Shown: positions 7,555-61,658 of the stretch, in pieces
Position numbering within the stretch: the first letter of the stretch is position 1
How the letters are laid out: each line of letters begins with the position of its first letter
DNA from: an uncultured Lentisphaerota bacterium
GTDB lineage: Bacteria; Verrucomicrobiota; Lentisphaeria; Oligosphaerales; CAITYL01
Assembly: GCA_903896595.1 (NCBI GenBank)
Contig: CAITYL010000021.1
Coordinates: 852 to 64,851, forward strand
Direction: 5' to 3'
Length of the DNA: 64,000 nucleotides
The notes under the pieces: model-generated
What the model was told of the DNA's origin: nothing
The model's input: the letters and a program-made list of their open reading frames with translations, nothing else
Database searches by the model: none
Program-made: the position numbers and the translations under genes

Positions 7555-7595
7555 TGAGCCTGCATTGCGAGAATGTCTTTGATGTGGAACTGGTG

Positions 7596-14796: not shown

Positions 14797-14844
14797 CGAT
14801 TGCCCCCCGTGCAACCCGTTTGCGGAACACGAAACATCCCCGCC

Positions 14845-28457: not shown

Positions 28458-28525
28458 GGCGAGTCCCTCGTTAATGCCGCGTAATGTATCGTTGGAATCG
28501 ACCGCCCCCGGGAAAGTGGTTTTGT

Positions 28526-28630
28526 AGGACCATTAGGACTCTTGGGACCATTGGGACACTTGGGACTGGCGGTGGTTTCCGCCGGCGTCCTAATGGTCCC
28601 AAGAGTCTTAATGGTCCCAAGGGTCCTTTG
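28526..28630. repeat. 9-nt periodic word palindrome, GGACC/GGTCC type, copy 2 (inverted)
   Basis: aggaccattaggactcttgggaccattgggacacttgggactggcggtggtttccgccggcgtcctaatggtcccaagagtcttaatggtcccaagggtcc. Confidence 0.85.
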
Positions 28631-31443: not shown

Positions 31444-31905
31444 TTACCCGGCCAAAATGAAGGTCAGGTCATTGACGTTGGTGTTGGTGGGGCCGGTGCG
31501 CAGCAGGCCGCCGGCGCGGTCAAAAAAGGAGTAGGCGTCATTGGCCGCGAGAAAGGCCGCGGCGTCCAGCCCCTGTTCGCGCGCCAGTCGCACCGTGTCG
31601 CCAGTGACCACGGCGCCGGCGGCATCGGTGGGGCCGTCGGTGCCGTCGGTGGCCAGGGCGATCACGGTCACCCCGTCCCAGCCGTCCAGCGCCAGGGCCG
31701 CCGCCAGTGCCAGTTCCTGGTTGCGGCCGCCGCGGCCGGCACCGCGCACGGTGACCGTGGTCTCGCCGCCCAAAATGACACAGGCCGGGCGCGCCAGCGG
31801 CATGCTATCCGCAATCAGCGATTTGGCGATGCCGGCCACCACCCGCGCCACTTCCCGCGCCTCGCCTTCGACATAGTGCTTGGGGACGGGTGAATGGTGA
31901 TTCAT
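31444..31905 (-). CDS. MOFRL-domain protein: only the C-terminal third of a glycerate 2-kinase / hydroxypyruvate reductase-type gene
   Basis: 153 aa. PACVILGGETTVTVRGAGRGGRNQELALAAAL...ATDGTDGPTDAAGA...TGPTNTNVNDL is the MOFRL domain. The usual ~270-aa N-terminal domain is absent. The start overlaps the fucosidase stop (TGATG). Confidence 0.65.
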   Translation of the reverse strand: MNHHSPVPKHYVEGEAREVARVVAGIAKSLIADSMPLARPACVILGGETTVTVRGAGRGGRNQELALAAALALDGWDGVTVIALATDGTDGPTDAAGAVVTGDTVRLAREQGLDAAAFLAANDAYSFFDRAGGLLRTGPTNTNVNDLTFILAG

Positions 31906-33230
31906 CAGGCAAAGCCGGTTAGTTCAAAAACGACCGGACCGCTGGCAAGACCCCGTGGGGCAGCCGACCGAAGGTGAATCTCGTCCCCGGTGGGTGCCCA
32001 CTCCACCGGCGCACCATCCAGGCGGCGGATCACCGCGTGCGGGCCCGGCCGGGGTTGGACCAACCGCCATTCCCCAACGCCACAGTCAAAACAAATGGCA
32101 AACACGCGTTCGTCGGCAACCGTATAAAACAGGTCATCGCCTTCCGACGGCACCCGCCAGGGACGGGTGCCGTAGATGGCCGCGCCATTTTCCCCGAGCC
32201 AGCGCCCAAGAGTCAGCAGGCGCTCCTGCATGACCACCGGAATGGAACCGTCGGCGGCTGGGCCGATATTGAGCAATAGATTGCCGCCCCGACTGACGGT
32301 CGTCACCAACAGCCGCAGCAACTGGTCAGCCGCCAGGTAGTCCGCGGCGTCCTCGTTGCGGTTGAAGCCGAAGGAATAGCCGATGCTCCGGCACTCCTCC
32401 CATTTGCGGTGAGCGGCCAGCTCGGTACCGTGCTCGTCCACCTTGCCGTACTCCGTGGTGAAATATCCGCCATGCCGGCTGCGGGTATCCTTTCCCCAGC
32501 GGTCATTCACCACAATTTCATCTTTCACCGCCGACTCATTGAAGAGCCAGGCCAGGAATTCAGGACTGTGATAGACCGCGCTGTCATGGTCCCATTCCCC
32601 GTCAGTGAACAGCAGCGAGGGGTGATATTGCCCGACCAGTTCCCGCAATTGCGGGATCATGTGTTCCAATGCGTATTGTTCCGGGGCCGCCTGATAGAGC
32701 GGCCGGTACCACTCCAAAAGGGAATAATAGGCGCCCATGCGCAACCCTTGGGCTCGGACAGCGGCGGCCAGTTCGCCGAACAAATCGCGGTGCGGCCCAA
32801 TGTCCTGGCTGTTCCAGTTCCAACTGTGGGTGCTGGGCCACAGGCAAAACCCGTCATGATGCTTGGCCGTGAGGACGACATAACGGGCGCCACTGGCGGC
32901 AAACAGTTCCGCCCAACGCGCCGGATCAAACAATTCAGCGCGGAAGTGCGGGGCGAAGTCCGCATAACGGCACTGGGCGCCGTAAGTTTGGGTGTGAAAC
33001 GCCGCCGTTTGGCCCGCCTTTTCGTTCATATTCCACCCATACCATTCGGCATAGGCGGCGCCGGCGTAGGCGGCATCCCGGCGGCGGGGTGCCCAGGCCG
33101 GGACGGAGTAAAGTCCCCAATGGATGAAAATCCCGAATTTTGCCTCGTCAAACCACCCCGGTACCGGGCGGCGGTCAAGCGATTCCCACAACGGTTGCCA
33201 AGCCATAAACGTCATCTGACCGTTCTCCAT
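31905..33230 (-). CDS. alpha-L-fucosidase (GH29)
   Basis: 441 aa. PVPGWFDEAKFGIFIHWGLYSVPAW ... YVVLTAKHHDGFCLWPS ... is the GH29 signature region. Confidence 0.9.
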   Translation of the reverse strand: MENGQMTFMAWQPLWESLDRRPVPGWFDEAKFGIFIHWGLYSVPAWAPRRRDAAYAGAAYAEWYGWNMNEKAGQTAAFHTQTYGAQCRYADFAPHFRAELFDPARWAELFAASGARYVVLTAKHHDGFCLWPSTHSWNWNSQDIGPHRDLFGELAAAVRAQGLRMGAYYSLLEWYRPLYQAAPEQYALEHMIPQLRELVGQYHPSLLFTDGEWDHDSAVYHSPEFLAWLFNESAVKDEIVVNDRWGKDTRSRHGGYFTTEYGKVDEHGTELAAHRKWEECRSIGYSFGFNRNEDAADYLAADQLLRLLVTTVSRGGNLLLNIGPAADGSIPVVMQERLLTLGRWLGENGAAIYGTRPWRVPSEGDDLFYTVADERVFAICFDCGVGEWRLVQPRPGPHAVIRRLDGAPVEWAPTGDEIHLRSAAPRGLASGPVVFELTGFA

Positions 33231-33296: not shown

Positions 33297-35225
33297 TTAC
33301 AAGATATTTTCCCGGTAGCGACGGTTGGTCAGGTACAGGTAAACCGCGGCTGACCACTGATAGTCGGGCGAACCGCCGCCCGGCCGTTGCGGATCGCTGA
33401 AATAACATTCCAGAATTTTGTCGCCCCGGTCGATCATCGCCAGCAGCCGGTCGGCGGCATCGTCGGCCTGCCGCCGGTAGCCGTTGGCCCACAGCATTTC
33501 CAAAATCCAGGTGGTCGTATGCGGCCAAATCCGGCCGCGCCAGTAGCCGCAGGGGTCATACTGCGGATCGTCATAGGCCACATACGGAAACGGCTGCGGA
33601 CCAAAGAACCGTTGCGGGTTGAGGGCATTGTCCTTAAGCAAGGTTTGCTTGACCTCGTCGGGCAGCGGCATGCCGGCCCAAACCGGCAGCAAGGAGGTCA
33701 GCACACGGACGCGATTGAAGGCTTGGCACTGGTGATCATAATCGTGGAAATAACCCGTTTCGCGGTCCCAGCAAACGTCCAGCAGGCGTTGCGGAATCGC
33801 GTCCACGGCGGCCATGACGGCGGCGGCATTCACGTCATCGCCAACCAGACGGTAGAGCTTGGACAGACAGCGGGCCTCCATGTAGATGTAGCTGTTATAG
33901 GCCACTGACGCCACCGGCGGCAGGAAGCAGCACCCGGAAAATCCGGTGCAGGAAAGATGGGCCATGTAACGATCATATTGCGGCGAGTTGTCGGCGCTTT
34001 GTCCGGTAAAACGGACTTCGATCAGACCGTCGCGGTCATGGTCCTGGGTCTGGAGATACCAGTCAAACACGCCCCGTACCCGTGGCAGGATTTCGCGGAC
34101 AAAACCGAGATTTTCCCAGCGGCGGTACAGGTGCAGGATGCCCCATCCCTCCAACGGTGCCTGCGGATAAAACGTCGAGCCCACCTCGTACTCATAACTG
34201 TGCGTGGGGACGCAACCGTCCGGACGCTGAAACGCATACAGCACCCGCAACGCATCCTCCGCCTGGCGCGGCGAAAATTCGCCGAGCCCGATGGCGCCAA
34301 AAATCGAATCCCAGAAAAATGCCGTGGACGCCCAGTCGGTGGCCATGCAAAAACTGGCGATGGATTGGCCCCAACGTCCGTGGACGCCCAAGTATCCGGT
34401 CCGGTCCAAGATCGCCGCCGCCCGCACTTCGCGGCTGTAGGAGGGACGTTCACGGCCGGGCAACGGCGCGATCCGGGCGCAAAAACGATTTTGGGCTTCC
34501 CCCCAGACGGCATTGAACTCTGATGCCGCCGGCAGTTCCCCCCATGCCATCGCCTGCTTCGGCGGCCGGTTTTCCATGTCCAGCAGAAACAATACGCTCT
34601 GCGGCTGTTTTAAGCTGCAGCCGCCGGCCTGAAGCCGGTAACCCGCCGACAACGGCTGGCAGGCCAGCGGACGGCCGGGCGCGGAAAGCCGCCAGCAGGC
34701 GCACCAGTCTTCGCCCGATGAGAAAAACCGGTCATTCTTGGCGTCGCGGGCACCAACGGCAAAGGCCACCGCGTCCTGCTGATTTTCGATTTTCCTTACG
34801 GCATAATCGGCAAACCAGCGGCCGTCGAACGCCAACTCGAGATCGCCATCGTACCCGTCGCCGGCCAACGCCAATTCCAGCAGATAGAGATTGTGCCGCG
34901 GACAGGTGATCCGGAGTTTTCCGGTAATCGCGCAGTTGCCCCAGCGGATTTCGCCGGACTGGGTTACCCCCCACGGATAGTGCTCAACACCGGATGCGGT
35001 TAACGGCTGCGCGGACGGCCAGTCAGTGGCTTTGATTTTGATCTGCAGCGATGGCGCCGTGGCCTGGCCGCGGATATTGTTCAAACCGCGGGTGCACAAC
35101 GCATCAATCCCAACGGTATTGCGAAGAAAAGTCACGACCAGATGGGAATAGCAATCAACGTATCCGGCATCCATCGCTTCCGGCGCAAACCGGTTTTTAA
35201 ACAACGTGTCTTCTTTTTGCTTCAT
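33297..35225 (-). CDS. (alpha/alpha)6-barrel glycoside hydrolase, GH63 / MGH1-like
   Basis: About 640 aa. FFWDSIFGAIGL ... DRDGLIE ... GQSADNSPQYD ... YWRGRIWPHTTTWILEMLW are typical of GH63/GH37-type six-hairpin enzymes. The ORF-track start at 35246 is TTG. The first ATG is at 35225. Confidence 0.65.
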   Translation of the reverse strand: MKQKEDTLFKNRFAPEAMDAGYVDCYSHLVVTFLRNTVGIDALCTRGLNNIRGQATAPSLQIKIKATDWPSAQPLTASGVEHYPWGVTQSGEIRWGNCAITGKLRITCPRHNLYLLELALAGDGYDGDLELAFDGRWFADYAVRKIENQQDAVAFAVGARDAKNDRFFSSGEDWCACWRLSAPGRPLACQPLSAGYRLQAGGCSLKQPQSVLFLLDMENRPPKQAMAWGELPAASEFNAVWGEAQNRFCARIAPLPGRERPSYSREVRAAAILDRTGYLGVHGRWGQSIASFCMATDWASTAFFWDSIFGAIGLGEFSPRQAEDALRVLYAFQRPDGCVPTHSYEYEVGSTFYPQAPLEGWGILHLYRRWENLGFVREILPRVRGVFDWYLQTQDHDRDGLIEVRFTGQSADNSPQYDRYMAHLSCTGFSGCCFLPPVASVAYNSYIYMEARCLSKLYRLVGDDVNAAAVMAAVDAIPQRLLDVCWDRETGYFHDYDHQCQAFNRVRVLTSLLPVWAGMPLPDEVKQTLLKDNALNPQRFFGPQPFPYVAYDDPQYDPCGYWRGRIWPHTTTWILEMLWANGYRRQADDAADRLLAMIDRGDKILECYFSDPQRPGGGSPDYQWSAAVYLYLTNRRYRENIL

Positions 35226-35264
35226 GCGATGATTACCCTTGTTCAAAGAGATAAGGCCCCATAA

Positions 35265-35412: not shown

Positions 35413-38400
35413 CTAGGGCGCCGGCGGTGCCGGCGCCAAAAGCCACGTCAAACTCTGCCCCATAAATTTGCCATTGCCAATCCCGGGCCGGCATTCCAGG
35501 TAGCCGAGACGGCCGGCGCCGTCGTTGTCATTGAGAATGAAATTCATCGGGAGCCGCGCGCCCGCTTCGCCGCGCAACGGCGCCAGCGCCGTCCAGGGAA
35601 TGGCCACTTCATAAACCAGGCGGCCGGCCAATTCTTTTATGGCGATATGGGCGCCGGGTACCGGGCCGACCCCGCCGCCGGGAGCAACCAGCTGGTAAAC
35701 CTCGGGACCGCGGGCGGTCTTGGCAATCAGAATCTCGTAGAGCGGCGCCTGCGTTCCGCCAAAGGTGAACTGGAATCCGTCGCCCATCCAGGTGGCGCCG
35801 CCGGTGGCCGGCTGGAAATGCACGTTGTCGCTGACGTCGGCGGCGATATACAACACCTCCGCATCCCATTGGAACCACAGGCGGCCGGACAGATCCGCCG
35901 GCCCATGCCACCAGGAGACATCAGGCCGAACCTGTCCTGGCTCGCCCAGTTGGAAGGCCGGGCTCCGGGGCCAGTCGTCCAAGGAGCCATCCACGGTCAC
36001 CGGCCGGGTGCGCCGGGGAATGCAAGCAGATGACACCGCGCGGTCCAGGGTGAACGGCAGGCCGTTGACGCTGCCGCTGAAGCGCGCAGACAGGCTTTCC
36101 GGTACCGTCCCCAGCTTCACGGTGTAAGCCAAATCCAGCGAACGCCCCGGAGCCAAATTCACCGCCACCGCCCCGGCCGGCGTCACCTGGGCATCAGGCA
36201 CGCTCATCGCCACCGAGCCCCGGAGCGGCGCCACGCCGCCATTGGTGAGCCGCGCGTTCAGCGTAAAAACACCGTTGCGCAAGGGTGCCATCAGCGGCGC
36301 CACCGCTAACGTAAACGGCAAGGCGACTTCACACTCCACGGGAGCGTCGTCGCAACCGCTGGCTTGCAACCGTAACGTCACCGGGCCGGGAAGCGCGCCA
36401 GCCGCCAAAGACACGGTGAACGCGCCATCCATCTCGTCACGGGACGCACAAGCAAGCGGCCCGGGCGCCGCCGTCAACGTCCAGCCGGCGGGCATGGTCA
36501 GTCGCGGCGTGACCGTGACCGGCCGGTCGCCGCCATTGACCACGGAAAACGGGATCTGGAACGGTTGTCCCGGAAATGCCGGCCCCAGGCGCGGCACCGC
36601 CAGGAACAGTGGCCGCGGCGACCGGGCGGGCGGAAGCACATCCACCGGCCGGGGTATCGGCGCTTCCGCCCGGCGGGCCTGAAACAGCACCACCACCGGG
36701 GCACCGCCCACGGTAAGTCGCAACTGGCCGCCTGCAACGGACCGAAACGTCCGCGTGCCGTCGATCGCCACCAATTCCACACCGGAACCGGCCGCCAAAT
36801 CAGGCAGGGGCAGTTCAATTTCCCGTGCCCGGTCGTCGGCGCTCCACAGCGCCAGAGCGGCCCGGCCGTCGCGCAACCGGTAGCGCCAGGCCGCGCAGCC
36901 CGGCGGGACCGCGGCGGCGCGCCCCAGCCCGCGCGCCCCGTCCAAGGTCTTGGCCACGGTCAAGTACGCATAAAACGCCGGTTTGGGCCGGCCGTCGCCC
37001 CGGAACAGGCCGAAATAGCCCTCCTGGTCGGTCGGCGCCGCCGGATAATCACCGGAACAGTACCAAAACATCTTGTACTTCTCCACCGCCGCGCAGGTCA
37101 GGTAAAGCTGGGCCAGTAATTCGGCCTGCCGCGATTCGCTGACGCCGCCCACCGGCTGCGACGGCCAGCCGAACTCGGTCATCCATACCGGCCGCCCGGC
37201 GGCGCCGTTGTCCGCCAGCACCTTTTCCAGCGAGGCGAGCTGCGACAGCATCAGTTCCGGGTTGTAGGCGTGACACCACTGGTAGGGATGCACGGTGACG
37301 AAATCGCAATAGCCGCCCACCCCGTTGCGGAGTCCGCCGGTGATGAACGGCAGGTTGATGCCCGCCGTGGAAAAGGCGCCGACAAAACAGGCCGGATCCG
37401 CCTGTTTGGCCATCACGTACGCCGCCTTGACCAGCGCCGCATAGTGCGGGGGCGGCACCGGCGCCAAGTCCGGTTCGTTGCTGACTTCCCAGCACCGGAT
37501 GCGGCCGCGATAGCGCGACACCACCCGGTAAACCCAGTTTCCCCAGTCCATCAATCGCGGTATTTTTTCCCCGGCCGCCAACGACGCATAACCGCTGTGA
37601 GCCGCGCTGCCCGCCGAGGCGTGGTCCTGCCGGACGCCGCCCGGCTGATAGACATATTGGAAACGGCGCGGATTGAAGATGCCCAGGACCATGATCCGGT
37701 CCCGCGCCGCATTGGCCATAATGGCATCCAAGCCTTTGACATTTTCTTCAAAGGTCAGGTCGGGCCGGTAATCCAGATCCACGCGGATCCACTTGATGCC
37801 GGCCGGCGTCAGCATGGCGGTGTCCAAGCTCTTGTGGCACAGCCCGAAAACGCTTTCCGGTTCCAGCGCGCCGGCCGTCCGGTCCGGCACCCCGGCCAGT
37901 TCCGCCCGTGCCGCCGTCACCATGGCGCCGTCCGGCGCCGTCAACCGGGCGCGGGCGACAAAGCTCCGGCCCGGCGGGAAGCGGACCGGGAAGGTCGCGT
38001 GCATCTCCCCGGTCCCGGACTGCGGCATCGCCACCGCCCGCGTTGCCGTTGCCACGGCCTTGCCCGCGGCGTCCGCAACTTCCAAATGGAGCTGATAGCC
38101 TGGGGTGGGCGGATTGCGGTACCCAGTCAGCGCGAACGTCACGCGTTCGCTGCCGGTGGTGGCCACCAGGCCGCCGCCGGTATAACGAAGTTCCGCGTCA
38201 CCCCAGGGGGAAAGCGTCGCCGCCACTTCCAGGTCCGCCAGTTCCAACGTCCCCGAACGGGCCGCCCCGGCACTCCAGCCCAGGGTCACATCCTGCAAGT
38301 AGGCCGGCGGATGCAGTACGCCATCATTATCCCCACCCCAGTGGCTTTCGGTGGCGGCGATGGGGATCTCCACGGTTTTCCACCCGGTCCAGTCCACCTT

Positions 38401-38796
38401 GCCCAGCGTCCACTGAAACGTCTGGCCGCTAGCGTCGGTGTAGCGGAAGGACAGCGTGATCCCCGGCTTTTCCGCGTAAATCCGCATCCGGTAGGCGGAC
38501 GGCGTTCCCCAACATTTGAAGCGGTGGCCGATGGCGGCAAAGCTGTCCGTAGTGGCCGTAGGCTCAAATTCCCAGCCGAGTTTCAGGCTGGCGCGGCCCG
38601 CTACTGACGGCTGATCCTGGGAAACGGTCGTTTCGGTGATGCGGGCCGGGCCGTTGGCGTAGCTCCAACCGGAAAACGGCGCCACGGTAAAATCCGGCAA
38701 CGGTTGCCAGCCGGGCGCCACCGGCGCGGCAATCGCGGCCGCCGCCAGCACCAGCCCAGCCAAACTTGCAAAAAAAATGCGCATGAGGAATTTCAT
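35413..38796 (-). CDS. large secreted multidomain glycoside hydrolase (clan GH-A catalytic core, CBM9/DOMON-like C-terminus)
   Basis: 1127 aa. Signal peptide MKFLMRIFFASLAGLVLAAAAIAAP. IRCWEVSNEPD (acid/base) and PVWMTEFGWPSQP (nucleophile). The C-terminal DGSLDDWPRSPAF...LWFQWDAEVLYIAADVSDN is CBM9-like. Confidence 0.75.
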   Translation of the reverse strand: MKFLMRIFFASLAGLVLAAAAIAAPVAPGWQPLPDFTVAPFSGWSYANGPARITETTVSQDQPSVAGRASLKLGWEFEPTATTDSFAAIGHRFKCWGTPSAYRMRIYAEKPGITLSFRYTDASGQTFQWTLGKVDWTGWKTVEIPIAATESHWGGDNDGVLHPPAYLQDVTLGWSAGAARSGTLELADLEVAATLSPWGDAELRYTGGGLVATTGSERVTFALTGYRNPPTPGYQLHLEVADAAGKAVATATRAVAMPQSGTGEMHATFPVRFPPGRSFVARARLTAPDGAMVTAARAELAGVPDRTAGALEPESVFGLCHKSLDTAMLTPAGIKWIRVDLDYRPDLTFEENVKGLDAIMANAARDRIMVLGIFNPRRFQYVYQPGGVRQDHASAGSAAHSGYASLAAGEKIPRLMDWGNWVYRVVSRYRGRIRCWEVSNEPDLAPVPPPHYAALVKAAYVMAKQADPACFVGAFSTAGINLPFITGGLRNGVGGYCDFVTVHPYQWCHAYNPELMLSQLASLEKVLADNGAAGRPVWMTEFGWPSQPVGGVSESRQAELLAQLYLTCAAVEKYKMFWYCSGDYPAAPTDQEGYFGLFRGDGRPKPAFYAYLTVAKTLDGARGLGRAAAVPPGCAAWRYRLRDGRAALALWSADDRAREIELPLPDLAAGSGVELVAIDGTRTFRSVAGGQLRLTVGGAPVVVLFQARRAEAPIPRPVDVLPPARSPRPLFLAVPRLGPAFPGQPFQIPFSVVNGGDRPVTVTPRLTMPAGWTLTAAPGPLACASRDEMDGAFTVSLAAGALPGPVTLRLQASGCDDAPVECEVALPFTLAVAPLMAPLRNGVFTLNARLTNGGVAPLRGSVAMSVPDAQVTPAGAVAVNLAPGRSLDLAYTVKLGTVPESLSARFSGSVNGLPFTLDRAVSSACIPRRTRPVTVDGSLDDWPRSPAFQLGEPGQVRPDVSWWHGPADLSGRLWFQWDAEVLYIAADVSDNVHFQPATGGATWMGDGFQFTFGGTQAPLYEILIAKTARGPEVYQLVAPGGGVGPVPGAHIAIKELAGRLVYEVAIPWTALAPLRGEAGARLPMNFILNDNDGAGRLGYLECRPGIGNGKFMGQSLTWLLAPAPPAP

Positions 38797-38842
38797 TCGC
38801 CTTTCGTGACGATTCAGCGCGAGTCCAAACTTGTCCAGCCCA

Positions 38843-38903
38843 GGCTTGGAGTTCCCACTTCAGTGGGGGCTGTTCGCAAGGTACCGCCTGAAGGCGGAAC
38901 TCC
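38843..38903. repeat. hairpin-module element H, copy 2 (same modules, permuted order)
   Basis: ggcttggagttcccacttcagtgggggctgttcgcaaggtaccgcctgaaggcggaactcc. Ends 47 nt before the start codon of the 1127-aa hydrolase (minus strand). Confidence 0.8.
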
Positions 38904-38937
38904 GAACCCTAGAGCCGTTTTCAAAAGTCCCCATCAA

Positions 38938-38983
38938 GGTGGCACCGTTTTTGGAGTGCGGCAATTCCTTTGCCGCTTTTTAA
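38938..38983. repeat. repeat family F, copy 2
   Basis: ggtggcaccgtttttggagtgcggcaattcctttgccgctttttaa. Terminator-like, but the T-run is on the strand opposite to the flanking genes. Confidence 0.8.
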
Positions 38984-39035
38984 TGCCCGACTTGAGGAAC
39001 TGAAACCCTCTTGATTCAGTCAAAACACGTTTGAA

Positions 39036-39109
39036 CAGAAGATCGCGAAGACCGCAAAGAACGTACTTACACACACAATTCAAACCTTCGCGACCTTTGC
39101 TTCCTTCTG
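39036..39109. repeat. imperfect palindrome of CGCGAAG/GCAAAG periodic words
   Basis: cagaagatcgcgaagaccgcaaagaacg ... ccttcgcgacctttgcttccttctg. The outer 6 bp pair perfectly. The inner words are similar but in shuffled order. Confidence 0.6.
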
Positions 39110-39159
39110 TTAAAAATCCGACATTTGAAAGCACCTCCCTAACCTGGATTATCGTGAGT

Positions 39160-39232
39160 GTGGCAAAGGGCTTGTAGCCCGCCCAATCGAAACGTGGCAG
39201 TTCAAAGAGCGCGATGCAATCGCTTTGTTACC
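39160..39232. repeat. repeat family B, copy 2
   Basis: gtggcaaagggcttgtagcccgcccaatcgaaacgtggcagttcaaagagcgcgatgcaatcgctttgttacc. Confidence 0.8.
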
Positions 39233-39250
39233 CCGAAAGCCGCGGCCACC

Positions 39251-39919
39251 TCAACGAAAATATTGATTGCCGTTGACCTGGTAAAACAGCTGGCGGTTGG
39301 CGCTGGGGAAGTTGGTCACATGACCGTCGCCCATCACGGCATTGGCACTGGTGCGGTGGTTCGCCGAGTTTTGGTTCTGCAAATCCATGAACAACACCCC
39401 CTCTGTCAAGCGGTCGGCGGTATTGCGCTTGAGGGAGAATCCGCCGTTGCGGAAGTAATTATCGGACGGCGGATAGGCGAAATAACCATAGGAAAGATAA
39501 GAAATCTTGCCAATGGCGTCGTCGCTCGGATGCCACCAGCCCCACCAGTTGTTTTCCGGGCAAAAGTCTTTGTTGGCCGGGCAATAGAACATCGTATGGC
39601 TGATATAAGTTCCTGGTCCGAAACGATCATCCCAGGTTTTGCCAGGATTGACCAGGGGCCCGGTCAGGGTCGCGGAACAGACGGTGTTTGGATCCAGCAG
39701 GCCGTCCCAGGTGCCGATCGGGTATTGCAGCGGGAACCAGCTGTTGTAGTCGCCGGCATAGGAATGCAGCGCCAGGCCGAGCTGGCGCAGGTTGGAGCCG
39801 CAGACCGCCAGTCTGGCCCGGTCCTTGGCCCCGCTGAGCGCCGGCAACAGCATGCTCGCCAAAATGGAAATGATGGCGATCACCACCAACAGCTCAATAA
39901 GAGTAAAAGCACGTTTCAT
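39251..39919 (-). CDS. prepilin-type N-terminal cleavage/methylation domain protein with H-X9-DG motif
   Basis: [32 protein letters not shown] plus C-terminal [13 protein letters not shown]. Confidence 0.9.
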
Positions 39920-39970
39920 GAGTAAAAAAACCGTGCGGTTGGGGATGTGCTACAACGGAGATAGGGCAGA

Positions 39971-40053
39971 CTCTGTGGACTTGGTGGACCCTGTGGACCC
40001 TGTGGACGTTTGGGCGCCGTCCACCAGGTCCACCCAGTCCACCGGGTCCACGC
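39971..40053. repeat. 9-nt periodic word palindrome, GTGGAC/GTCCAC type
   Basis: ctct gtggacttg gtggaccct gtggaccct gtggac gtttgggcgcc gtccaccag gtccaccca gtccaccgg gtccacgcc. Lies between the PEP-CTERM stop (40073) and the pseudopilin start (39919). Confidence 0.9.
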
Positions 40054-40072
40054 CTTTTTTCAGGTGGAGCGT

Positions 40073-40897
40073 TCAGCGCCGGCGGCGGCCGCCCAGGGCC
40101 AGCAGGCCCAGGCCGAGCAGCGACAGCGCGGCGGGTTCCGGCACCGCCAGGGTGATGTCGTCCGCCTTCATGTACATGTTGCCGCCGCCGCTATAGACAT
40201 TGGCCAAGGCAAAGGTGTCCAAGGAAAAGTGATCGCCGGCGCCCAGCGTCACGGTGGAGGTGCCGATGGTGGTTGCGGTAGTCACGTCGGTCAGAGTAAA
40301 ATACAAATTGCGGATGGCGGCCTGATAGGTCACATCCAAACTGTAGGTATGGCTGATGTCGCCAATTTTCAGCCCGGCGCCGTTCAAGGTTAAAGCGGCG
40401 GAGGTGATGACTTGGGGCGTAAAGAGATACGCGCCGGGATAATTCGTTCCTGCCCACGGATAATAGTCAGTCCCCACGATCCTGACCCGCACGCTGTCAG
40501 AACCGCCGGCTTTGCTCAGTCCGGCATCCATCTCCCCATACCATGACCATCCAATGTATTGCGAAGAATCCGCCAATTTCAGGGAGTAACTAAAACCGGT
40601 GGCATCGGTAAGAGTCACTCCGGCGGCGCGCGAAAAATTGGAAGAGGTATCATACTCATTTTGCCAAGCCAAATTGCTGTTGGCCGAGGACCAGGCGAAT
40701 GCGTTCTTGCCCGACGCATTGGACTGTGTCCACGCGCCGGCCGGCGTCACCGGATTGCTGTTAAAATTCTCTGTCCACAGGGTGGTCATGGCGGCCGAGG
40801 CCGCCGCAGTGGTCGCCAGCAGGGCGAGACCGGCCCAGGCTAGACCAACGCTGATCTTCCGGCCCGGGGTCGTGTTGCGGATCGTGTTTGTTTTCAT
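40073..40897 (-). CDS. PEP-CTERM sorting-domain secreted protein (beta-sandwich-like)
   Basis: Signal-like N-terminus ...ISVGLAWAGLALLATTAAASAA. C-terminus VPEPAALSLLGLGLLALGGRRRR. Confidence 0.85.
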   Translation of the reverse strand: MKTNTIRNTTPGRKISVGLAWAGLALLATTAAASAAMTTLWTENFNSNPVTPAGAWTQSNASGKNAFAWSSANSNLAWQNEYDTSSNFSRAAGVTLTDATGFSYSLKLADSSQYIGWSWYGEMDAGLSKAGGSDSVRVRIVGTDYYPWAGTNYPGAYLFTPQVITSAALTLNGAGLKIGDISHTYSLDVTYQAAIRNLYFTLTDVTTATTIGTSTVTLGAGDHFSLDTFALANVYSGGGNMYMKADDITLAVPEPAALSLLGLGLLALGGRRRR

Positions 40898-42009
40898 GCT
40901 CGGGTTCTCCTTGGGTTGGGGGACATGGTATTGGCAACCACGGAACAGGACTCACGTTCCACCAGCGGGGACGTGCAAAGCACGGAATGCGACGACGCAT
41001 CACCTTTGGCCTTCAGCAATTCCAGCAGGAGTTTGACGGCGCTTCGCCCCATGGCCATGGACGGATATTGCAGGGAGGTCAGCGAGGGGGACAGCGATTC
41101 GCAGATGCGGATGTCATTGTCGAAGCCGATGACCGAAACCTCCCGCCCGGCGCGCCAACCGCGTTTTTCAAAATACCGATAAACCCCAATGGCCTGCCAG
41201 TCATTGGCGGCCAGCACCGCCGTGGGTGCGTCCGGGCCACAAAACAGCGGTTCCAACAGTTCGTCCAAAACCGGCGGCTTGGTTTCCGCCCGCCGCACCC
41301 GCCGTTCGTCCCCCACCAAATCGCGCACCGCCTCGAATCGGGCGTCCGTGCCCAACCCCAACTGTTGCCGGGCCTCGCGGTAGGCCGCCAGCCGTTCCGC
41401 GAAGTCCGCATGGGTCGGCTCCCGGTTGACAAAACCGATCTTGCGGTGCCCCAGAGCGTGCAGTTTTTCCATGGCCTGAAACACCGCCTGCCGGTTGTCC
41501 ACGTTCACGGTTGACAACGCCGGCCCCCCCGGACAGGACCCGATCACCACCGCGGAGGTCAAGGCCCGGATTTGGGCGCCAAAAGCCGGGGTGATCGCGC
41601 CAAACAGAATGACCCCTTCCACTTTCCGGTCCAGCAACAACTTCGGGATGCTCTCCAAGTCCATGGTGTTGGAAATCAGCAGGTGATACCCGTTTTCCGA
41701 CAGCGCGGTCTGAATGGCATTGACCAGACTGATGACCAGCGGCAACTCCAGCATGCTGTATTCGGTGTTCGGCAGCACAAAGCCGATGTTGCCCGACCAA
41801 ATTCCTTCGCGGGCGGACGGCTGGTTGCGCCGGAGCGAGCGCGCCACCGAGTCCGGGCGATAGCCCAGCTCCAGGATCGCCTCCTGCACGGCGCCGCGGG
41901 ACTGGGTCGAAACCCGCGGGTGGCCGTTCAGCACCCGGGAGGCGGTGCCGATCGAGACGTTCGCCCGCCGGGCGACATCATCCAAGGTGACTTTTTCGCT
42001 CCTGCCCAC
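40894..42009 (-). CDS. LacI family transcriptional regulator
   Basis: VTLDDVARRANVSIGTASRVLNGHPRVSTQSRGAVQEAILELGYRPDSVARSLR is the LacI HTH, followed by a PBP sugar-binding core. GTG start at 42009. The stop overlaps the PEP-CTERM gene start (4-nt overlap). Confidence 0.9.
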   Translation of the reverse strand: MGRSEKVTLDDVARRANVSIGTASRVLNGHPRVSTQSRGAVQEAILELGYRPDSVARSLRRNQPSAREGIWSGNIGFVLPNTEYSMLELPLVISLVNAIQTALSENGYHLLISNTMDLESIPKLLLDRKVEGVILFGAITPAFGAQIRALTSAVVIGSCPGGPALSTVNVDNRQAVFQAMEKLHALGHRKIGFVNREPTHADFAERLAAYREARQQLGLGTDARFEAVRDLVGDERRVRRAETKPPVLDELLEPLFCGPDAPTAVLAANDWQAIGVYRYFEKRGWRAGREVSVIGFDNDIRICESLSPSLTSLQYPSMAMGRSAVKLLLELLKAKGDASSHSVLCTSPLVERESCSVVANTMSPNPRRTRA

Positions 42010-42038
42010 TGCCGTAACCCCGCTTGAGTTAGCGTTAC

Positions 42039-42053
42039 AATGAATCGTTTACA
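42039..42053. promoter_or_regulatory. candidate LacI-family operator upstream of the LacI/PEP-CTERM operon
   Basis: AATGAATCGTTTACA (reverse strand TGTAAACGATTCATT) fits the TG-AA-CG-TT-CA LacI/GalR-type half-site pattern around a central CG. Located 30-45 nt upstream of the GTG start at 42009. Confidence 0.3.
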
Positions 42054-42214
42054 CAGCACTATAACATGAAGCGGACGTTTGGCAAGCGAGAGGCATTCCA
42101 CGGGGGTATACAAGGGTGTTGGTGGAAGAACGATGCTGGCGCCGCTGGAAAGGGCGCAGACCGCATTATTGTACGTCTCTAGCCGGCACACATCTGTCCA
42201 CGGAAGTCTGTACA

Positions 42215-45617: not shown

Positions 45618-46367
45618 TCAGGAACGAAGTTTCCGCAAATGCTCCGGCATCGACTCATATAGGGCGCGCACTAGGCGATCCATTTCGGTTGACGGATTGG
45701 CGGGTAACGGAGTCGCGGCGCCGTGATGGTGTTGGCGCACTCTTGCGGCGTGTTCCACGGCCGTGGGCCACTTGGAGAAAAAGGAGCCGATGGCTTCCCT
45801 TGCCGTTTCTTTGGTGGTTGAATAGTCTCTGCCCAAAACCTTTTTGAGAGCCGCTTTTGCAGCATCCCCATTGTGCAGGTCGCTACGCGTGGTGTATGCC
45901 AAATGAAGCAACAGCCAGAATTCGAAGCATGGCGACGAGTGCGCCAATTTTACCTTCTTGGCAGTGGCCGATTGCTGGACGTTATTCCAGATGCCTTCCC
46001 GCACTGCCACGTCGGTGTCTATCACGGCCCAAACATGGTCAAACATTGATGGTTCATCGATGCCAAGCCGACCTTTTCTGGCTTTGTATGCTTGCGCTGT
46101 AGCTTCGCGTGCGGCAGTTGCGATTACATGTCGCGGATGTGACGCATCCCCTGGTATAACTTTTATCCACACAGTGGACAATTGAAGATCTTGCAGCAGC
46201 AAATCAAAATAGACCGGCTCGGTGACTGTTCCTTCAGTTACAATCAGGAACGTGTCACCAAGTTTTGCCAACGCAGAGCCCACCGCTTTGGCGCGCGCCT
46301 TGCGTTCCAAACTTGCCGCTTTCGGCGCTTGCCACCAGTTGGGATCGTATGAAGCGGCCTCACTCAT
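45618..46367 (-). CDS. RloB-like protein (AbiLii-like partner of the upstream ATPase)
   Basis: DTFLIVTEGTVTEPVYFDLL...FDHVWAVIDTD...VKLAHSSPCFEFWLLLHL is the RloB-domain pattern (TEG..E...D.D...NPCFE.W). Start ATG 46367 overlaps the ATPase stop by 8 nt. Confidence 0.75.
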   Translation of the reverse strand: MSEAASYDPNWWQAPKAASLERKARAKAVGSALAKLGDTFLIVTEGTVTEPVYFDLLLQDLQLSTVWIKVIPGDASHPRHVIATAAREATAQAYKARKGRLGIDEPSMFDHVWAVIDTDVAVREGIWNNVQQSATAKKVKLAHSSPCFEFWLLLHLAYTTRSDLHNGDAAKAALKKVLGRDYSTTKETAREAIGSFFSKWPTAVEHAARVRQHHHGAATPLPANPSTEMDRLVRALYESMPEHLRKLRS

Positions 46368-47721
46368 CACGGCCAGCCTTTTCGGACGATGCGGCCGTTT
46401 CTCTGGTTGGGAAAGAGCCAAGCAAACCATCCGGCACAAACGGCACTGCGCCGTAGCGGCCGGAGAGGTAACCACGCACCAGCGACTCCCCCTTCCGTGG
46501 CTGATAATCCGTCAGGGGATAGAGATGGCCTGCGCCTTCGGTGTCTTTGTCGGTGAACCAAATTTGGTCACGGCGCAACAACGTTGGATCCAGCAATAGC
46601 GGATTGTGCGTGGTAAAAATAATCTGCGCGCCTTTGGGATTCTCCGTGTTACTAAAAATCAGCCGCAGCAATTCCCGCACCATGAGCGGGTGCATGCTGG
46701 CTTCCAGTTCGTCTATGCAGATGGTATGGCCGTTGCTCAAGATGTCCAGCCACGGCCCCGCCAACCCAAAGAAGCGATGCGTTCCAGCGGATTCATTTTT
46801 CCACGGCAACGGTAGATCAGCTTCGTTGCTACCACGATGTATCAATTCTGGTTCAAACTGGCGATTATGGAGGATTTTCTCCCGCAACTCCGGCGAAAAA
46901 GGAAGGACGGTTGTGATTTTTTCAAGTGTATCCAGTTCCTTCTGTGTGCGGTATTTTTCAACAGCGCGCACTCCCGTTACCCCCAAATCGGCATGGCGTA
47001 ACATCCTTAAAATCTGGTCGTGCAATGGCGACTTTTTTTGAATTTGCTCAAGGGTAATCTCTGCCCCTAATTGGCCTCGCGGACTCAAGTCGAGGAATAA
47101 CAACTGCTCTTTAAACCACCGGAAAACAGGCTCCAGTTCGGATCGCCCTTCTGCAATGGCTTTCGACAAAAAGAGCACATTGCTCAATGTGCGTCTTTCA
47201 TCATCAGTGTTACGTCGAAAGCCACTGGGGCGTTCGGGCGACCACGCATAGTTCCCGGAATCGGAATTCCAATCCCGGCAGAACCACAGCTGTTCTTTCG
47301 CCTTGGGGAAGGCACGTAAAGACTCATGCCAAATCCGTTCCCGTGTCGCGGCTACGCGGTACTCAAACCGGATGCCATCGGCCACAAAGACCACCGCGAA
47401 TGCGGTTGGTACTTCCTCTTGACCGGAACACAGCACAAAAGGGTCAATTTGCTGAATTAGTTCTTTGGGATCGGTCGTCTTGGCCGATGTTCCCACCAGC
47501 TCAGCCAAAGCCTTTAATGCTTCAATCACCGTTGTCTTTCCGCTGGCATTGGCACCATAGAGCGCCACACCCTTGACCCAGCGCTTGCCGGTCAGCCCTG
47601 GCAGATCGTCCGTGGTAATGCAGTTGTCCGGTAGCGTCTTGTCGTGATTGCTCGCCGCCAGATTCAGTGTCTGCCGTTCACGGAAAGAACGAAAATTGGA
47701 AACTGAAAACTGAATAAGCAT
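46360..47721 (-). CDS. AAA_21 / ABC-like ATPase (AbiLi / RloA-like)
   Basis: MLIQFSVSNFRSFRE..., Walker A GANASGKTT, signature-like ESAGTHRFF, Walker B ICIDELEASMHP, H-loop FTTHNP. Markedly lower GC than the flanking genes. Confidence 0.8.
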   Translation of the reverse strand: MLIQFSVSNFRSFRERQTLNLAASNHDKTLPDNCITTDDLPGLTGKRWVKGVALYGANASGKTTVIEALKALAELVGTSAKTTDPKELIQQIDPFVLCSGQEEVPTAFAVVFVADGIRFEYRVAATRERIWHESLRAFPKAKEQLWFCRDWNSDSGNYAWSPERPSGFRRNTDDERRTLSNVLFLSKAIAEGRSELEPVFRWFKEQLLFLDLSPRGQLGAEITLEQIQKKSPLHDQILRMLRHADLGVTGVRAVEKYRTQKELDTLEKITTVLPFSPELREKILHNRQFEPELIHRGSNEADLPLPWKNESAGTHRFFGLAGPWLDILSNGHTICIDELEASMHPLMVRELLRLIFSNTENPKGAQIIFTTHNPLLLDPTLLRRDQIWFTDKDTEGAGHLYPLTDYQPRKGESLVRGYLSGRYGAVPFVPDGLLGSFPTRETAASSEKAGRDE

Positions 47722-50987: not shown

Positions 50988-51005
50988 TTTTTGCTGCCTT
51001 GACGC

Positions 51006-51081
51006 GGCGGGCGCTTCCACCACAAGTCTACTGGCAAATCATTGCCGTCGGGCGCGTGGGCTTGTGGTGGAAGCGCCCGCC
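51006..51081. repeat. 21-bp perfect inverted repeat with a 34-nt loop
   Basis: ggcgggcgcttccaccacaag (51006-51026) / cttgtggtggaagcgcccgcc (51061-51081). The loop contains a small GGCAA-atca-TTGCC hairpin. Confidence 0.9.
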
Positions 51082-51230
51082 GGTTTAGGAAACAAAAGTT
51101 TTAGGAAGGGGGGTGCAGAGTGAACATGTGAACGACCCGGCGGGGCCGGGACTGCGAAGCGCGGAGCGCGGGGGGAGCACCCTTTTCCAAAAGGGTGTCC
51201 CCAACCTGGCCTGCCGCCGGTGTTTGCGGA

Positions 51231-55402: not shown

Positions 55403-55600
55403 TTGAGCCCCAACGGGGCGGTAGTAGCATAGCCCAGGGCAACGCCCTGGGTCCGGAAAATTAAGATAGCTTGCGCCCTGTAGGGGCAATGGAGATGCCC
55501 ATTCCCTTGCCCCTTCAGGGCGGCGAAAAAATGGGGAGGGGGAAGTTTCCCAGGGCGCTGCCCTGGGCTATTCTCCCCGGCCCCGTTGGGGCGAAAATCC
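55403..55600. repeat. repeat family A, copy 2 (inverted, lacks the ~40-bp centre)
   Basis: gagccccaacggggcgg...agcccagggcaacgccctggg...gccctgtaggggcaatgg / ...ccccttcagggcggc...cccagggcgctgccctgggct...ccccgttggggcg. Confidence 0.8.
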
Positions 55601-57381: not shown

Positions 57382-57424
57382 GTACCGTTTTGGGAGTGCG
57401 GCAATTCCTTTGCCGCTTTTTATA
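57382..57424. repeat. repeat family F, copy 3
   Basis: gtaccgttttgggagtgcggcaattcctttgccgctttttata. Confidence 0.8.
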
Positions 57425-57589
57425 GGAACATTCAACATCGAACATTCAACGTCGAATAATCCTTTTGATTCAGTCGAAACACGTTTAAAGCACCTTCGAT
57501 TTATCTTCGTGCTCTTCGTGGCTTCGTGGTGAATCCAAATGCTTACGTGCTACAAGGTACTAGACTAACGGGAAATCACGCCTCACGTT

Positions 57590-58701: not shown

Positions 58702-59832
58702 TTACCGGCGGCCCGCGGACTGCCGGTCCAGGACGTCCCGGTAAAGCTCCACGTAGTCCCCGTTGATCAGGTTCCAGTCGTAGCCCTTGGCGGTTTCCAG
58801 CGCCCGCTCGGACATCGCCTGCGCCTGGGCCGGGTCATCCAGCAGGGCGCTCGCCTGGCAGGCAAGTTCGGTGCAGTCACCCGGTGCCGCCAGCAGTCCG
58901 GTTTGTCCGGGGCGGACCAGCTCGGGGAGGCCCCCCACGCGGAAAGCGACCACCGGCACCCCGGCCGCCATGGCTTCCAAGGTGACCACGGAGAGCGCCT
59001 CGGAGCGCGAGCTGACCAGCAACAGGGCGGCGTGACGGAACCAGCGCGCCTTGTCCACCCCCAGTTGGAGGCCGAGGAAATCGACGGCATCCGTGATCCC
59101 CAGGGTGTCGGCCAGCCGGCGCGGCTCGCGGTCCGGCAGTCCCGCTTCTGCCCATTTTTCGGGGAATTCCTGCCCCATCAGGGCCAGGCGCATCTCCGGG
59201 TGGCGGGCATGCACCTGGGCAAAGGTCTCCAGCGCCAAGTCCGGCCCTTTGACAGGCAGGAGCCGGCCGGCGAACAGGACGTACGGGGCGGCGGCGGGGC
59301 GCTCCCGGCTGGCCTCCCCCGTAAACTCCGCGAGATCGGCGCCATTGTGGATGACCCGCAATTTGGCGGACGCCAGCCCCAGGTTGGTGAGCAGGTCGCC
59401 CTGGGCCGCCGAGATGGCAACGCCCCACGCGGCACGGTGGACGGTCCGGCGAATGCAAAAGCGCCCGAAACGGGTGACCTGACGGGCGTCGCCACCGTGC
59501 GAGGTGAAGACGAAGGGCACACCCGTAAGGCGGGAGAACAGGGCGGCGGCCCAACCTGCCGGTATGACGCCGTGGGCATGGACAAGGTCGAACCGGTGCC
59601 GCCGGTGATGGCACAACAACCCCCACAGCATGCCGTTCCAATTAAAGCCCGCCTTATGGTATTGCAATTGCCGATACGGTTGCGGTGCGGGCGGGGGTGC
59701 GTTCCGCTTCCGCCGGGTCAAGACCCAGGCCTGGTGTCCGGCCTGGACCTGTTTCCGCGCCAGCGTGTCGATCACGACCTCCATGCCGCCCATGTCTGGG
59801 AGGAAGGACGGGGTCAAGTGGCAGATCCGCAT
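58702..59832 (-). CDS. glycosyltransferase family 4 (GT-B, group 1)
   Basis: MRICHLTPSFLPDMGGMEV... and the C-terminal SRSEALSVVTLEAMAAGVPVVAFRVGGLPELV (E-x7-E region). ATG 59832 overlaps the stop of the upstream gene by 1 nt. Confidence 0.85.
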   Translation of the reverse strand: MRICHLTPSFLPDMGGMEVVIDTLARKQVQAGHQAWVLTRRKRNAPPPAPQPYRQLQYHKAGFNWNGMLWGLLCHHRRHRFDLVHAHGVIPAGWAAALFSRLTGVPFVFTSHGGDARQVTRFGRFCIRRTVHRAAWGVAISAAQGDLLTNLGLASAKLRVIHNGADLAEFTGEASRERPAAAPYVLFAGRLLPVKGPDLALETFAQVHARHPEMRLALMGQEFPEKWAEAGLPDREPRRLADTLGITDAVDFLGLQLGVDKARWFRHAALLLVSSRSEALSVVTLEAMAAGVPVVAFRVGGLPELVRPGQTGLLAAPGDCTELACQASALLDDPAQAQAMSERALETAKGYDWNLINGDYVELYRDVLDRQSAGRR

Positions 59833-61400: not shown

Positions 61401-61506
61401 CCGAATAATATAGTAGGGCGCGTGGCCGGGCACGCGGCACACGATCTTGAGGGAGGTGCTGGGTACGGAGGTGCTGGGGACGGGTACACGGTGCAGGGGA
61501 CGGGTA

Positions 61507-61658
61507 CACGGAATCCGCACGGACAAGCACGGACCTACACGGACGAGCACGGACACACACGGACACACACGGACACACACGGACGGTGGCCGCACGGCCG
61601 GGCCCGCGCCAATTCCAGCCCGTCCGTGTGTGTCCGTGTAGGTCCGTGCAGGTCCGTC
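61507..61658. repeat. 10-nt periodic word palindrome, CACGGAC/GTCCGTG type
   Basis: Left arm ...cgcacggac aagcacggac ctacacggac gagcacggac acacacggac acacacggac acacacggac gg. Right arm cgtccgtgtgtgtccgtgtaggtccgtgcaggtccgtcgg. Preceded by a tandem ggggacgggtacacgg x2 (61476-61511). Confidence 0.9.

Follow-up and report, generated by a model that had tools for sequence, protein, structure and literature searches.

A putative sugar-inducible glycan-degradation operon with its own pseudopilin in an uncultured Lentisphaeria bacterium, and the dispersed palindromes in its spacers

Introduction

Are the conspicuous palindromes between the genes of an operon parts of that operon, or are they repeats that happen to lie there? 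The question is raised by a 64,000-nucleotide (nt) stretch of DNA from an uncultured Lentisphaerota bacterium (contig CAITYL010000021.1, positions 852 to 64,851), here called the window. A first-pass annotation of the window, made from its letters alone, described two cassettes of the same architecture, each with a LacI regulator gene, a PEP-CTERM gene, a periodic palindrome, an H-X9-DG pseudopilin gene, a hairpin element (Element H) and a gene for a large secreted hydrolase. It held that the cassettes share both the gene order and the positions of the two kinds of non-coding element. This work deals with the second of them, cassette 2. We consider it probable, at about 0.7, that cassette 2 is a sugar-inducible operon with which a Lentisphaeria bacterium of freshwater or groundwater degrades a fucose-containing glycan outside the cell, and that the palindromes of the cassette are dispersed repeats. 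The annotation had named two outcomes that would speak against it, namely that the elements are dispersed repeats and that other genomes do not keep the gene order. The first is what was found. The second is not, since the gene order is kept in other genomes.

A Recurrent Operon Architecture

Genes on the minus strand of the window were called from an open reading frame (ORF) map together with Pfam and NCBIfam scans (Table 1). The regulator is a LacI-family protein with a LacI helix-turn-helix (HTH) domain (PF00356, 64.7 bits, cut-off 27) and a sugar-binding-type domain (PF13377 Peripla_BP_3, 110 bits). Its NCBIfam matches are all to LacI subfamilies and every one falls below the equivalog cut-off. 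The second gene encodes a PEP-CTERM substrate (PF07589, 26.7 bits, cut-off 20.7; TIGR02595, 21.2 bits, cut-off 16) with the C-terminal end VPEPAALSLLGLGLLALGGRRRR. The 4-nt overlap of these two genes stands as first annotated. It reads ATGA, with AGGAG 8 nt 5' of the PEP-CTERM start codon, and through it the PEP-CTERM gene is evidently coupled in translation to the LacI gene. The third product is a pseudopilin by its N_methyl (PF07963, 30.2 bits) and DUF1559 (PF07596, 38.1 bits) domains and its H-X9-DG motif, again in agreement with the first annotation, and it has 7841 homologues among the candidates scored. The GH63-like and GH29 genes were likewise found where they had been placed, downstream on the same strand.

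The fourth and largest gene required more revision. Its longest ORF starts at 38796 and gives the 1127 amino acids (aa) first reported. Gene callers start it at the ATG at 38784, which gives 1123 aa. This second ATG is the only one kept in two orthologues (L126 and L127; other loci are given here by such handles) and is the more likely start. Above threshold, Pfam finds only NPCBM_assoc and CBM9 domains in the protein itself, with weak sub-threshold matches to GH10 (E = 0.023) and Glyco_hydro_cc (E = 0.056). A full-library HMMER search with residues 1-720 recovered 8329 remote relatives, which align mostly to residues 415-705. Ten of these relatives were sampled, and 10/10 match clan GH-A families (Glyco_hydro_cc, GH39, GH10, GH53, GH42 and GH5), several above cut-off and one only at E = 0.002, below the Pfam cut-off. 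PDB entry 5jvk matches the large protein at E = 9e-9. Because the sampled relatives all match GH-A families, we infer that the protein is a glycosidase of an uncurated GH-A lineage whose central domain would be a clan GH-A barrel. The secreted hydrolase of the first annotation is hence retained as a large secreted protein, probably 4 residues shorter, and its enzymatic assignment comes solely through its homologues.

The PEP-CTERM protein behaves differently from its neighbours. It has just two homologues among 5.8 billion sequences, with 71% and 68% identity, and its passenger domain diverges much faster than the neighbouring proteins do: against L006, LacI is 99.5% identical at the protein level and the PEP-CTERM protein 71%. 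In L127 only the last 73 nt of the gene, which encode the anchor, are kept, and in place of the passenger stands another domain, of 206 aa, with weak discoidin-like matches. The passenger thus appears to be a hypervariable, replaceable domain inside an otherwise conserved operon, which points to selection on the surface-exposed part. A diversity-generating retroelement was considered as the source of this variability and of the palindrome downstream, and was rejected since the differences run through the entire gene. Neither a reverse-transcriptase gene nor a template repeat came to notice in the vicinity, although no search was aimed at either.

The contig of cassette 2 recurs in lake-water, groundwater and wastewater metagenomes. 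L127, a metagenome-assembled genome (MAG) of the Lentisphaeria, has the LacI, PEP-CTERM, pseudopilin and orthologous glycosidase genes in the order of cassette 2. The partial contigs L006 and L007 keep the LacI/PEP-CTERM overlap, and L007 also keeps the pseudopilin gene. In a further partial contig, L126, the glycosidase gene is followed directly by GH29, without the GH63-like gene. L052 assembles the same layout from unrelated components, namely a sugar-binding regulator, a 683-aa PEP-CTERM protein, a pseudopilin and an enzyme. In a separate sample, five pseudopilin homologues gave six gene contexts, and 5/6 have an adjoining LacI- or GntR-type regulator and, downstream, a large protein with either a carbohydrate-binding module (CBM) or a DUF4838 domain. 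The place of the surface protein is taken by a PEP-CTERM protein in L248 and by a small secreted protein in L251, and is empty in L249 and L250. This layout therefore suggests a general module of regulator, optional surface protein, pseudopilin and carbohydrate-active enzymes (CAZymes), which recurs with non-homologous parts in Lentisphaeria contigs. As judged from gene content, the architecture of cassette 2 is a real and recurrent variant of the glycan-utilization operons of the superphylum.

Cassette 1 has the same layout, as the first-pass annotation had seen, but its regulator (12518-13651) carries a GntR-type HTH fused to a sugar-binding domain and not a LacI HTH. BLAST between the two cassettes shows no paralogy, the pseudopilin N-termini excepted. 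Since one regulator is of GntR type and the other of LacI type, the cassettes are to be taken as analogous, not homologous. Just 5' of the cassette-1 regulator gene, the direct repeat GGTGTAATGCTGTAATT occurs twice, 42 nt apart (12438-12497), and is a candidate operator. The cassette-1 pseudopilin (14846-14960) and the L127 orthologue of the cassette-2 pseudopilin (4716-4840) each have two prepilin-like motifs about 20 residues apart. The stretch with the two motifs contains the hairpin CAGCGTTTACGCTG and represents either a long leader peptide or an in-frame insertion.

Lentisphaeria and their relatives possess hundreds of DUF1559 pseudopilin genes. In cassette 2 such a gene stands behind a sugar-responsive regulator and ahead of secreted CAZymes. 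This arrangement suggests a testable model in which every glycan operon would bring its own fibre subunit and its own surface binder.

Turnover of the Spacer Palindromes

The genes of the orthologous loci are well conserved at the nucleotide level. The LacI gene of cassette 2 is 98.7% identical to that of L006, 84% to that of L007 and 80% to that of L127; the pseudopilin gene is 91% identical to that of L007 and 86% to that of L127; and the glycosidase gene is 86% identical to that of L127 and 88% to that of L126. Neither of the two long spacers gives a BLAST match between orthologous loci, though the flanking genes are 80-99% identical. The spacer between the PEP-CTERM and pseudopilin genes is 48 nt long in L007 and has no array, and in L006 and L127 it holds a different double-hairpin element, GTT(T/C)GTTGT...TACAACGAAC. 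The spacer between the pseudopilin and glycosidase genes, which differs in four relatives, holds a CACAGAG-type periodic palindrome and other repeats in L126, without Element H, and a single hairpin, GGAGTGCGGCGC-CTCA-GCGCCGCACTCC, in L127. The first-pass annotation had proposed aligning such spacers. Comparison of the orthologues shows neither an array kept after the PEP-CTERM gene nor paired hairpins kept before the hydrolase gene.

Strains and read depth were compared on Logan contigs of four metagenomes. In a close strain, seen in one contig, 353 nt (38788-39140, with Element H and its neighbours) are exchanged for 112 other nt. Over 38842-39083, one run reaches depths of 2282 and 2152 where its baseline is 18, and a second reaches about 530 where its baseline is 8-13, so that Element H and its neighbours stand at about 50-125 times the local baseline in two metagenomes.

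Similar elements are found throughout the window. It contains about 18 intergenic palindromic elements, which fill most spacers longer than about 100 nt when set against a gene map based on third-position GC content (GC3). Tetraloop hairpins number 9 against 0.17 expected. There are four double-hairpin elements (15597-15657, 38848-38903, 7473-7560 and 63836-63923), with related elements at 764-841 and 55474-55522. Periodic palindromes lie at 10030-10130, 12170-12280, 14751-14797, 28525-28627, 39030-39115, 39969-40053, 57400-57560 and 61430-61700. Two of the four double-hairpin elements and most of the periodic palindromes lie in spacers of other kinds than those of the cassettes. The spacer palindromes of cassette 2 are, on this evidence, best described as copies of fast-turning dispersed intergenic repeat families and not as positional parts of the cassette. 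Caution is accordingly needed with conspicuous palindromes in the operon spacers of such genomes, which should be treated as dispersed repeats and not as locus-specific signals.

Element H itself was found at the place first claimed, with 21-nt inverted arms (38843-38863 and 38888-38908; fold z = -2.8). Each of its two 20-nt arms has an exact second copy in cassette 1. Its inner hairpins are CCGCC-TTCA-GGCGG and CCCAC-TGAA-GTGGG, and it can fold either as one long hairpin or as an outer stem that encloses the two small ones. Read in the sense direction, cassette 1 has the arms as B..A and cassette 2 has them as A..B, which gives the two folds different topologies. The reported distances to the start codon, 47 nt in cassette 2 against 50 nt in cassette 1, become 59 nt (ATG 38784) against 51 nt (ATG 15708).

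These data bear on the view that two dedicated parts are held in position, the GTGGAC array behind the PEP-CTERM gene as an attenuator or processing site and the paired hairpins ahead of the hydrolase gene as a 5' untranslated region element. Both classes of element do occupy equal relative positions in the two cassettes of the window, and copies of GGAGTTCC type lie 48-67 nt 5' of a start codon in five cases (cassettes 1 and 2, both sides of the element in L096, and L052), a small number assembled post hoc. The L127 hairpin (GGAGT...ACTCC) also stands 52 nt 5' of the orthologous hydrolase gene. We nevertheless think a dedicated role rather improbable. The array is missing from the same spacer in L007, L006 and L127, Element H is absent 5' of the L126 orthologue and replaced in the close strain, the arm order is inverted between the cassettes, half of the double-hairpin elements and most periodic palindromes of the window sit in other kinds of spacer, and across phyla Element H occurs in mixed contexts. 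The likelier start at 38784 and the 67 nt in L052 weaken the case for a conserved spacing of about 50 nt. What stood of the claim of shared order and shared element positions is the order, which L127 keeps and L006, L007 and L126 keep in part; the elements are not fixed in position and the spacers differ.

In the 50 nt downstream of the GGAGTTCC-type copies no shared motif was found. Outward-facing -35 elements (GGAAC) of an extracytoplasmic function (ECF) sigma factor at the ends of Element H were considered and rejected, as cassette 2 has no CGTC-like -10 at the right spacing and cassette 1 turns the other end towards the gene. In L096, a Lentisphaerae MAG, an element of GGAGTTCC type (4641-4802) lies mid-way between divergent AraC-family and GH2 beta-galactosidase-like genes, 50 and 48 nt from the two start codons.

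The GTGGAC/GTCCAC palindrome is equally real. It lies between the PEP-CTERM stop codon and the pseudopilin start, as first described, with arms at 39975-40008 and 40018-40051. The window has 9 matches to the pattern against 0.83 expected, and the sense-strand RNA folds at -57.9 kcal/mol (z = -5.9), which 0/200 shuffles equal. The read depth over its bin is about 3 times the baseline. GTGGAC-N3 triplets were found in at least 120 metagenome contigs, many of them within long ORFs where they are probably coding repeats, and about one third look non-coding, with variable spacers. Among the matches listed, 14 contigs are palindromic in the manner of cassette 2 and come from organisms of very different GC content. 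The neighbouring CGCAAAG/CTTCGCG palindrome (39030-39115) folds less exceptionally (z = -2.1) and has a read depth about 100 times the baseline; units related to it are found at 10044-10116 and 57504-57529. The palindromes are mixed in their strand-specific G-U pairing, which gives no consistent advantage to the sense strand.

The GTGGAC array could instead be an array of protein-binding sites on DNA, for example a cluster that titrates DnaA. Its hexamers are perfectly kept while the 3-nt spacers vary, as in binding-site arrays, and variable-spacer arrays occur in many organisms. Half of the units (39969-40007, opposite strand) read NNGTCCACA, which agrees at 7/9 positions with TTGTCCACA, the DnaA box of high-GC bacteria, and the metagenome contig L206 mixes GTGGAC units with perfect TGTGGATAA boxes. 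This explanation is very unlikely, however. Most units lack the T at box position 2, and the second arm has GTCCACC in place of GTCCACA; the close relatives L006, L007 and L127 lack the array; and other periodic palindromes of the window are built of the unrelated units GGACCATTG, CACGGACACA and GATCGCAAA.

Element H Across Phyla

The Element H family was searched for with the arm pattern GGAGTTCCNNCTTCAGNNGG against genome stretches. The pattern occurs in more than 118 of them, several MAGs appearing repeatedly, and the figures that follow hold among the matches listed. These come mostly from MAGs of Verrucomicrobiota, Planctomycetota, Acidobacteriota, Desulfobacterota and Lentisphaeria. Canonical copies consist of GTTYGGAGTTCC-CCNNN-TTCA/TTTA-NNNGG, then a spacer of 0-73 nt, then CCNNN-TGAA/TAAA-NNNGG-AACTCCRAAC, and the element of cassette 2 has this L..R topology. 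The canonical arrangement is seen in 56 pairs and the inverse in 13. The free NN/NN positions are complementary in 113/142 seed matches. Partner hairpins, picked by the outer-stem motif only, are perfect in 49/64 cases with at least six stem variants, so that compensatory change appears to have kept the stems. Flanking contexts are start/start, stop/stop and stop/start, at distances from 3 to about 390 nt, and genomes that bear the element have roughly one extra copy per 37 kb. In two Acidobacteriota loci, L065 (4470-4660) and L072 (5975-6045), tandem copies of the outer stem lengthen it on either side, with a period of 12-13 nt (GCATGGAGTTCCC / GTTTGGAGTTCC). These extensions link the double-hairpin elements to the periodic palindromes.

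Known families did not account for the element. Rfam 15 gives no match at gathering score in the window, and at lax thresholds it gives chance miRNA-like hairpins only (E up to 10 for 38780-40080, E up to 1 for eight loci with canonical elements). A literature search with the Element H sequence returned no match. Two super-families of repetitive extragenic palindromic (REP) sequences are defined by a GTAG or a CGTC tetranucleotide tag (PMC3733652). The consensus GTTYGGAGTTCC-CCNNN-TTCA-NNNGG has neither tag, and membership in REP was rejected. The double-hairpin elements do share with REP sequences the nature of high-copy extragenic palindromes, often in inverted pairs. Because it is absent from Rfam 15 and its stems show compensatory changes, Element H may be an undescribed repeat family that resembles the REP sequences and bacterial interspersed mosaic elements (BIMEs) of E. 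coli. That several phyla carry a repeat of the same sequence, with compensatory changes in its stems, is the most unusual by-product of this analysis.

Two further ideas go beyond a plain repeat. In the first, Element H would be a functional motif of structured RNA or single-stranded DNA under selection across phyla, which tunes the stability or translation of neighbouring genes and is recognized by a conserved trans-acting factor, for example a transposase, an RNA-binding protein or a nuclease. The near-invariance of GTTYGGAGTTCC ... GGAACTCCRAAC in the groups named above argues for it, as do the complementary stems, the loops that always read T-NN-A and the lack of a matching Rfam 15 family. 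The inner hairpins need not match each other, as if the small hairpins were kept and not a long duplex. This idea is unlikely in our judgement. The two strands of Element H look the same, as would be expected of an element that acts as DNA more than of an RNA with an orientation. Neither its direction nor its distance relative to genes is consistent, its turnover between strains is rapid, and no associated gene was identified. The second idea is speculative and somewhat less doubtful. Here the double-hairpin elements, of the form GTTYGGAGTTCC-[hairpin]-spacer-[hairpin]-GGAACTCCRAAC and its outer-stem variants, would be an undescribed family with its own dedicated trans-acting factor, kept in sequence across Verrucomicrobiota (including Lentisphaeria), Planctomycetota, Acidobacteriota and Desulfobacterota, and would together with the palindromes of 9-nt period shape expression inside operons of these environmental bacteria with large genomes.

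Regulation and Proposed Working of Cassette 2

A sigma-70-like promoter lies 5' of the LacI gene. Its -35 and -10 hexamers are kept in L006, L007 and L127, and the sequence farther upstream has diverged. It is directly followed by a putative 29-nt operator block that is near-invariant in four loci whose LacI genes are 80-99% identical. This block includes the GalR-like operator candidate of the first-pass annotation, which gains support from its conservation and loses some from its right half-site. Set against a LacI/GalR-type 16-bp palindrome centred on CG (about 14-16 matched positions), the left half and the centre fit and the right half does not. At up to 3 mismatches the block has one copy in the 64-kb window, and no further operator copies were found within the cassette. 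On the sense strand, the spacers between cassette genes contain no site like an intrinsic terminator (hairpin and T-run). The stems of the GTGGAC palindrome and Element H are included in this result, as no T-run follows them.

A single autoregulated transcript is inferred because the promoter and operator block stand in front and no spacer holds a terminator-like site on the sense strand. As the product of the first gene, LacI would keep its own operon repressed until released by a sugar ligand. The transcript would then encode, in order, LacI, the PEP-CTERM protein, the pseudopilin, the clan GH-A glycosidase with CBM9, the GH63-like enzyme and GH29. The PEP-CTERM surface protein probably binds the glycan. 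The cassette-specific pseudopilin, presumably a subunit of a type II secretion or type IV pilus-like fibre, would help to export or present the enzymes. Any effect of the palindromes would most likely be a generic one at the RNA level. As stem-loops without a T-run they may protect the upstream mRNA or partly stop readthrough, which would yield more regulator and surface protein than downstream enzymes, as REP sequences do in malEFG of E. coli.

Several findings weigh against the operon-with-dispersed-repeats interpretation. No RNA runs with the cassette or a canonical Element H locus were found. The passenger domain of the PEP-CTERM protein has no match in the Pfam scan, and AlphaFold, given an alignment of 3 sequences, returned an unusable model of the protein (predicted local distance difference test, pLDDT, 32). 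The operator candidate is imperfect as a palindrome. Both GGAGTTCC-type copies of the window lie in the same kind of spacer, for which random placement among about 25 spacers gives a chance of about 1 in 300, reckoned post hoc. The hairpin about 50 nt 5' of the L127 glycosidase gene leaves room for a local stem-loop role there.

Features of the Cassette and Its Surroundings

The features of cassette 2 are collected in Table 1.

Table 1. Genes and non-coding features of cassette 2 (positions in the 64-kb window).
Feature	Position	Strand	Basis
LacI-family transcriptional regulator, 371 aa, GTG start	40894..42009	-	Pfam LacI HTH and Peripla_BP_3/1
PEP-CTERM-anchored protein, 274 aa, signal peptide and beta-rich passenger domain	40073..40897	-	PF07589, residues 251-273
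DUF1559 / H-X9-DG pseudopilin, 222 aa	39251..39919	-	N_methyl and SBP_bac_10 domains, GspG-like N-terminus, H-X9-DG motif
Putative secreted multidomain glycosidase: signal peptide, clan GH-A domain at about 415-705, NPCBM_assoc, CBM9	35413..38796	-	Pfam and homologues
GH63-like (MGH1-like / trehalase-fold) glycoside hydrolase	33297..35246	-	PF22422, 6e-45
GH29 alpha-L-fucosidase	31905..33230	-	PF01120, 1.5e-117
Palindrome, 9-nt period: 4 x GTGGAC-N3, 9-nt loop, 4 x GTCCAC-N3	39969..40053	.	Pattern count, repeat search, fold
Second periodic palindrome, CGCAAAG/CTTCGCG type, 9-nt period	39030..39115	.	30-nt arms 73% complementary; Tandem Repeats Finder (TRF) period 9
Short GC hairpin GCGGCAAAGGAATTGCCGC then ACTCCAAA	38958..38976	.	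Terminator-like on + (antisense) strand only; inside high-depth bin
Element H (type H1): outer stem GGAGTTCC/GGAACTCC around two 5-bp hairpins with 4-nt loops	38843..38908	.	Inverted repeats, fold
Sigma-70-like promoter TTGCCA-N16-TATAGT, TG-extended, 5' of LacI gene	42058..42085	-	10/12 consensus positions
Conserved putative operator block TGTGTAAACGATTCATTGTAACGCTAACT, includes candidate 42039-42053	42027..42055	-	Near-invariant in four loci

Elsewhere in the window, the periodic palindromes at 12170-12320 and 28490-28627, built of GGACCATTR units, are a single dispersed repeat in inverted orientations. This repeat is at least 140 nt long and contains a central GGCGG...CCGCC hairpin and the shared tail TAYAAAACCACKTTCCCGSSGGCGGTCGAT. 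The largest palindrome, at 61430-61700, has a 10-nt period with CACGGACACA about 7 times against GTCCGTGTAG. Its 270 nt have a fold energy of about -139 kcal/mol, and it falls within the 5' end of the longest ORF call, 59832-61922. Strong intergenic inverted repeats are present at 6294-6384 and 51005-51082, one with 28-nt arms that are 100% complementary and the other with 27-nt arms that are 93% complementary. A low-GC stretch at 45618-47721 (0.53 against about 0.62) encodes an AAA_21/AAA_15 ATPase and an RloB-like protein, beside a DUF234 ATPase and a PIN/PhdYeFM pair, and looks like a small defence or toxin-antitoxin islet.

Comparison With Known Systems

The operator candidate resembles GalR/LacI operators in its position just 3' of the -10, which is typical of a repressor site, and in its left half-site and centre. 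The first 13 nt of the block match E. coli galOE (GTGTAAACGATTCCAC). Unlike galOE, the right half-site of the candidate is ATT, not CAC, and a second conserved segment, TAACGCTAACT, comes after it.

REP elements mediate differential mRNA stability in malEFG of E. coli. Cassette 2 likewise has a stable stem-loop without a T-run between an upstream gene for a probable binding protein and the genes downstream, and the likeness is one of analogy only. As repeats, the double-hairpin elements are like REP/BIME and the Pseudomonas REPINs in that they are short, GC-rich, multicopy extragenic palindromes, in inverted pairs both head-to-head and tail-to-tail. They also lie between cistrons or operons, vary between strains and keep their hairpins by compensatory change. 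Unlike REP sequences, Element H has no GTAG/CGTC tag, and its sequence is common to several phyla, which is unusual for REPs.

The Sus-like polysaccharide utilization loci (PULs) of Bacteroidota similarly bring together a regulator, a surface glycan-binding protein and secreted or surface CAZymes, presumably co-induced. Cassette 2 differs from them in its presumed PEP-CTERM/exosortase attachment and in its pseudopilin, and the Pfam scan found no SusC or SusD domain among the cassette proteins. It is thus PUL-like in its working and not a member of the class.

A further close parallel comes from Verruconatronum alginivorum, a verrucomicrobial alginate degrader described in a 2026 study. Its alginate-induced operon, which responds to the substrate as a single unit, contains a pulG-like pseudopilin gene that has 67 paralogues (PMC13274419). 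By proteomics, this pseudopilin was reported to be co-induced with the polysaccharide operon, and type II secretion of the lyases was proposed (PMC13274419). Cassette 2 differs in opening with its own LacI and PEP-CTERM genes and in encoding glycoside hydrolases, not lyases. What the two have in common is a CAZyme operon in which a pseudopilin of a very large paralogous family is embedded (PMC13274419).

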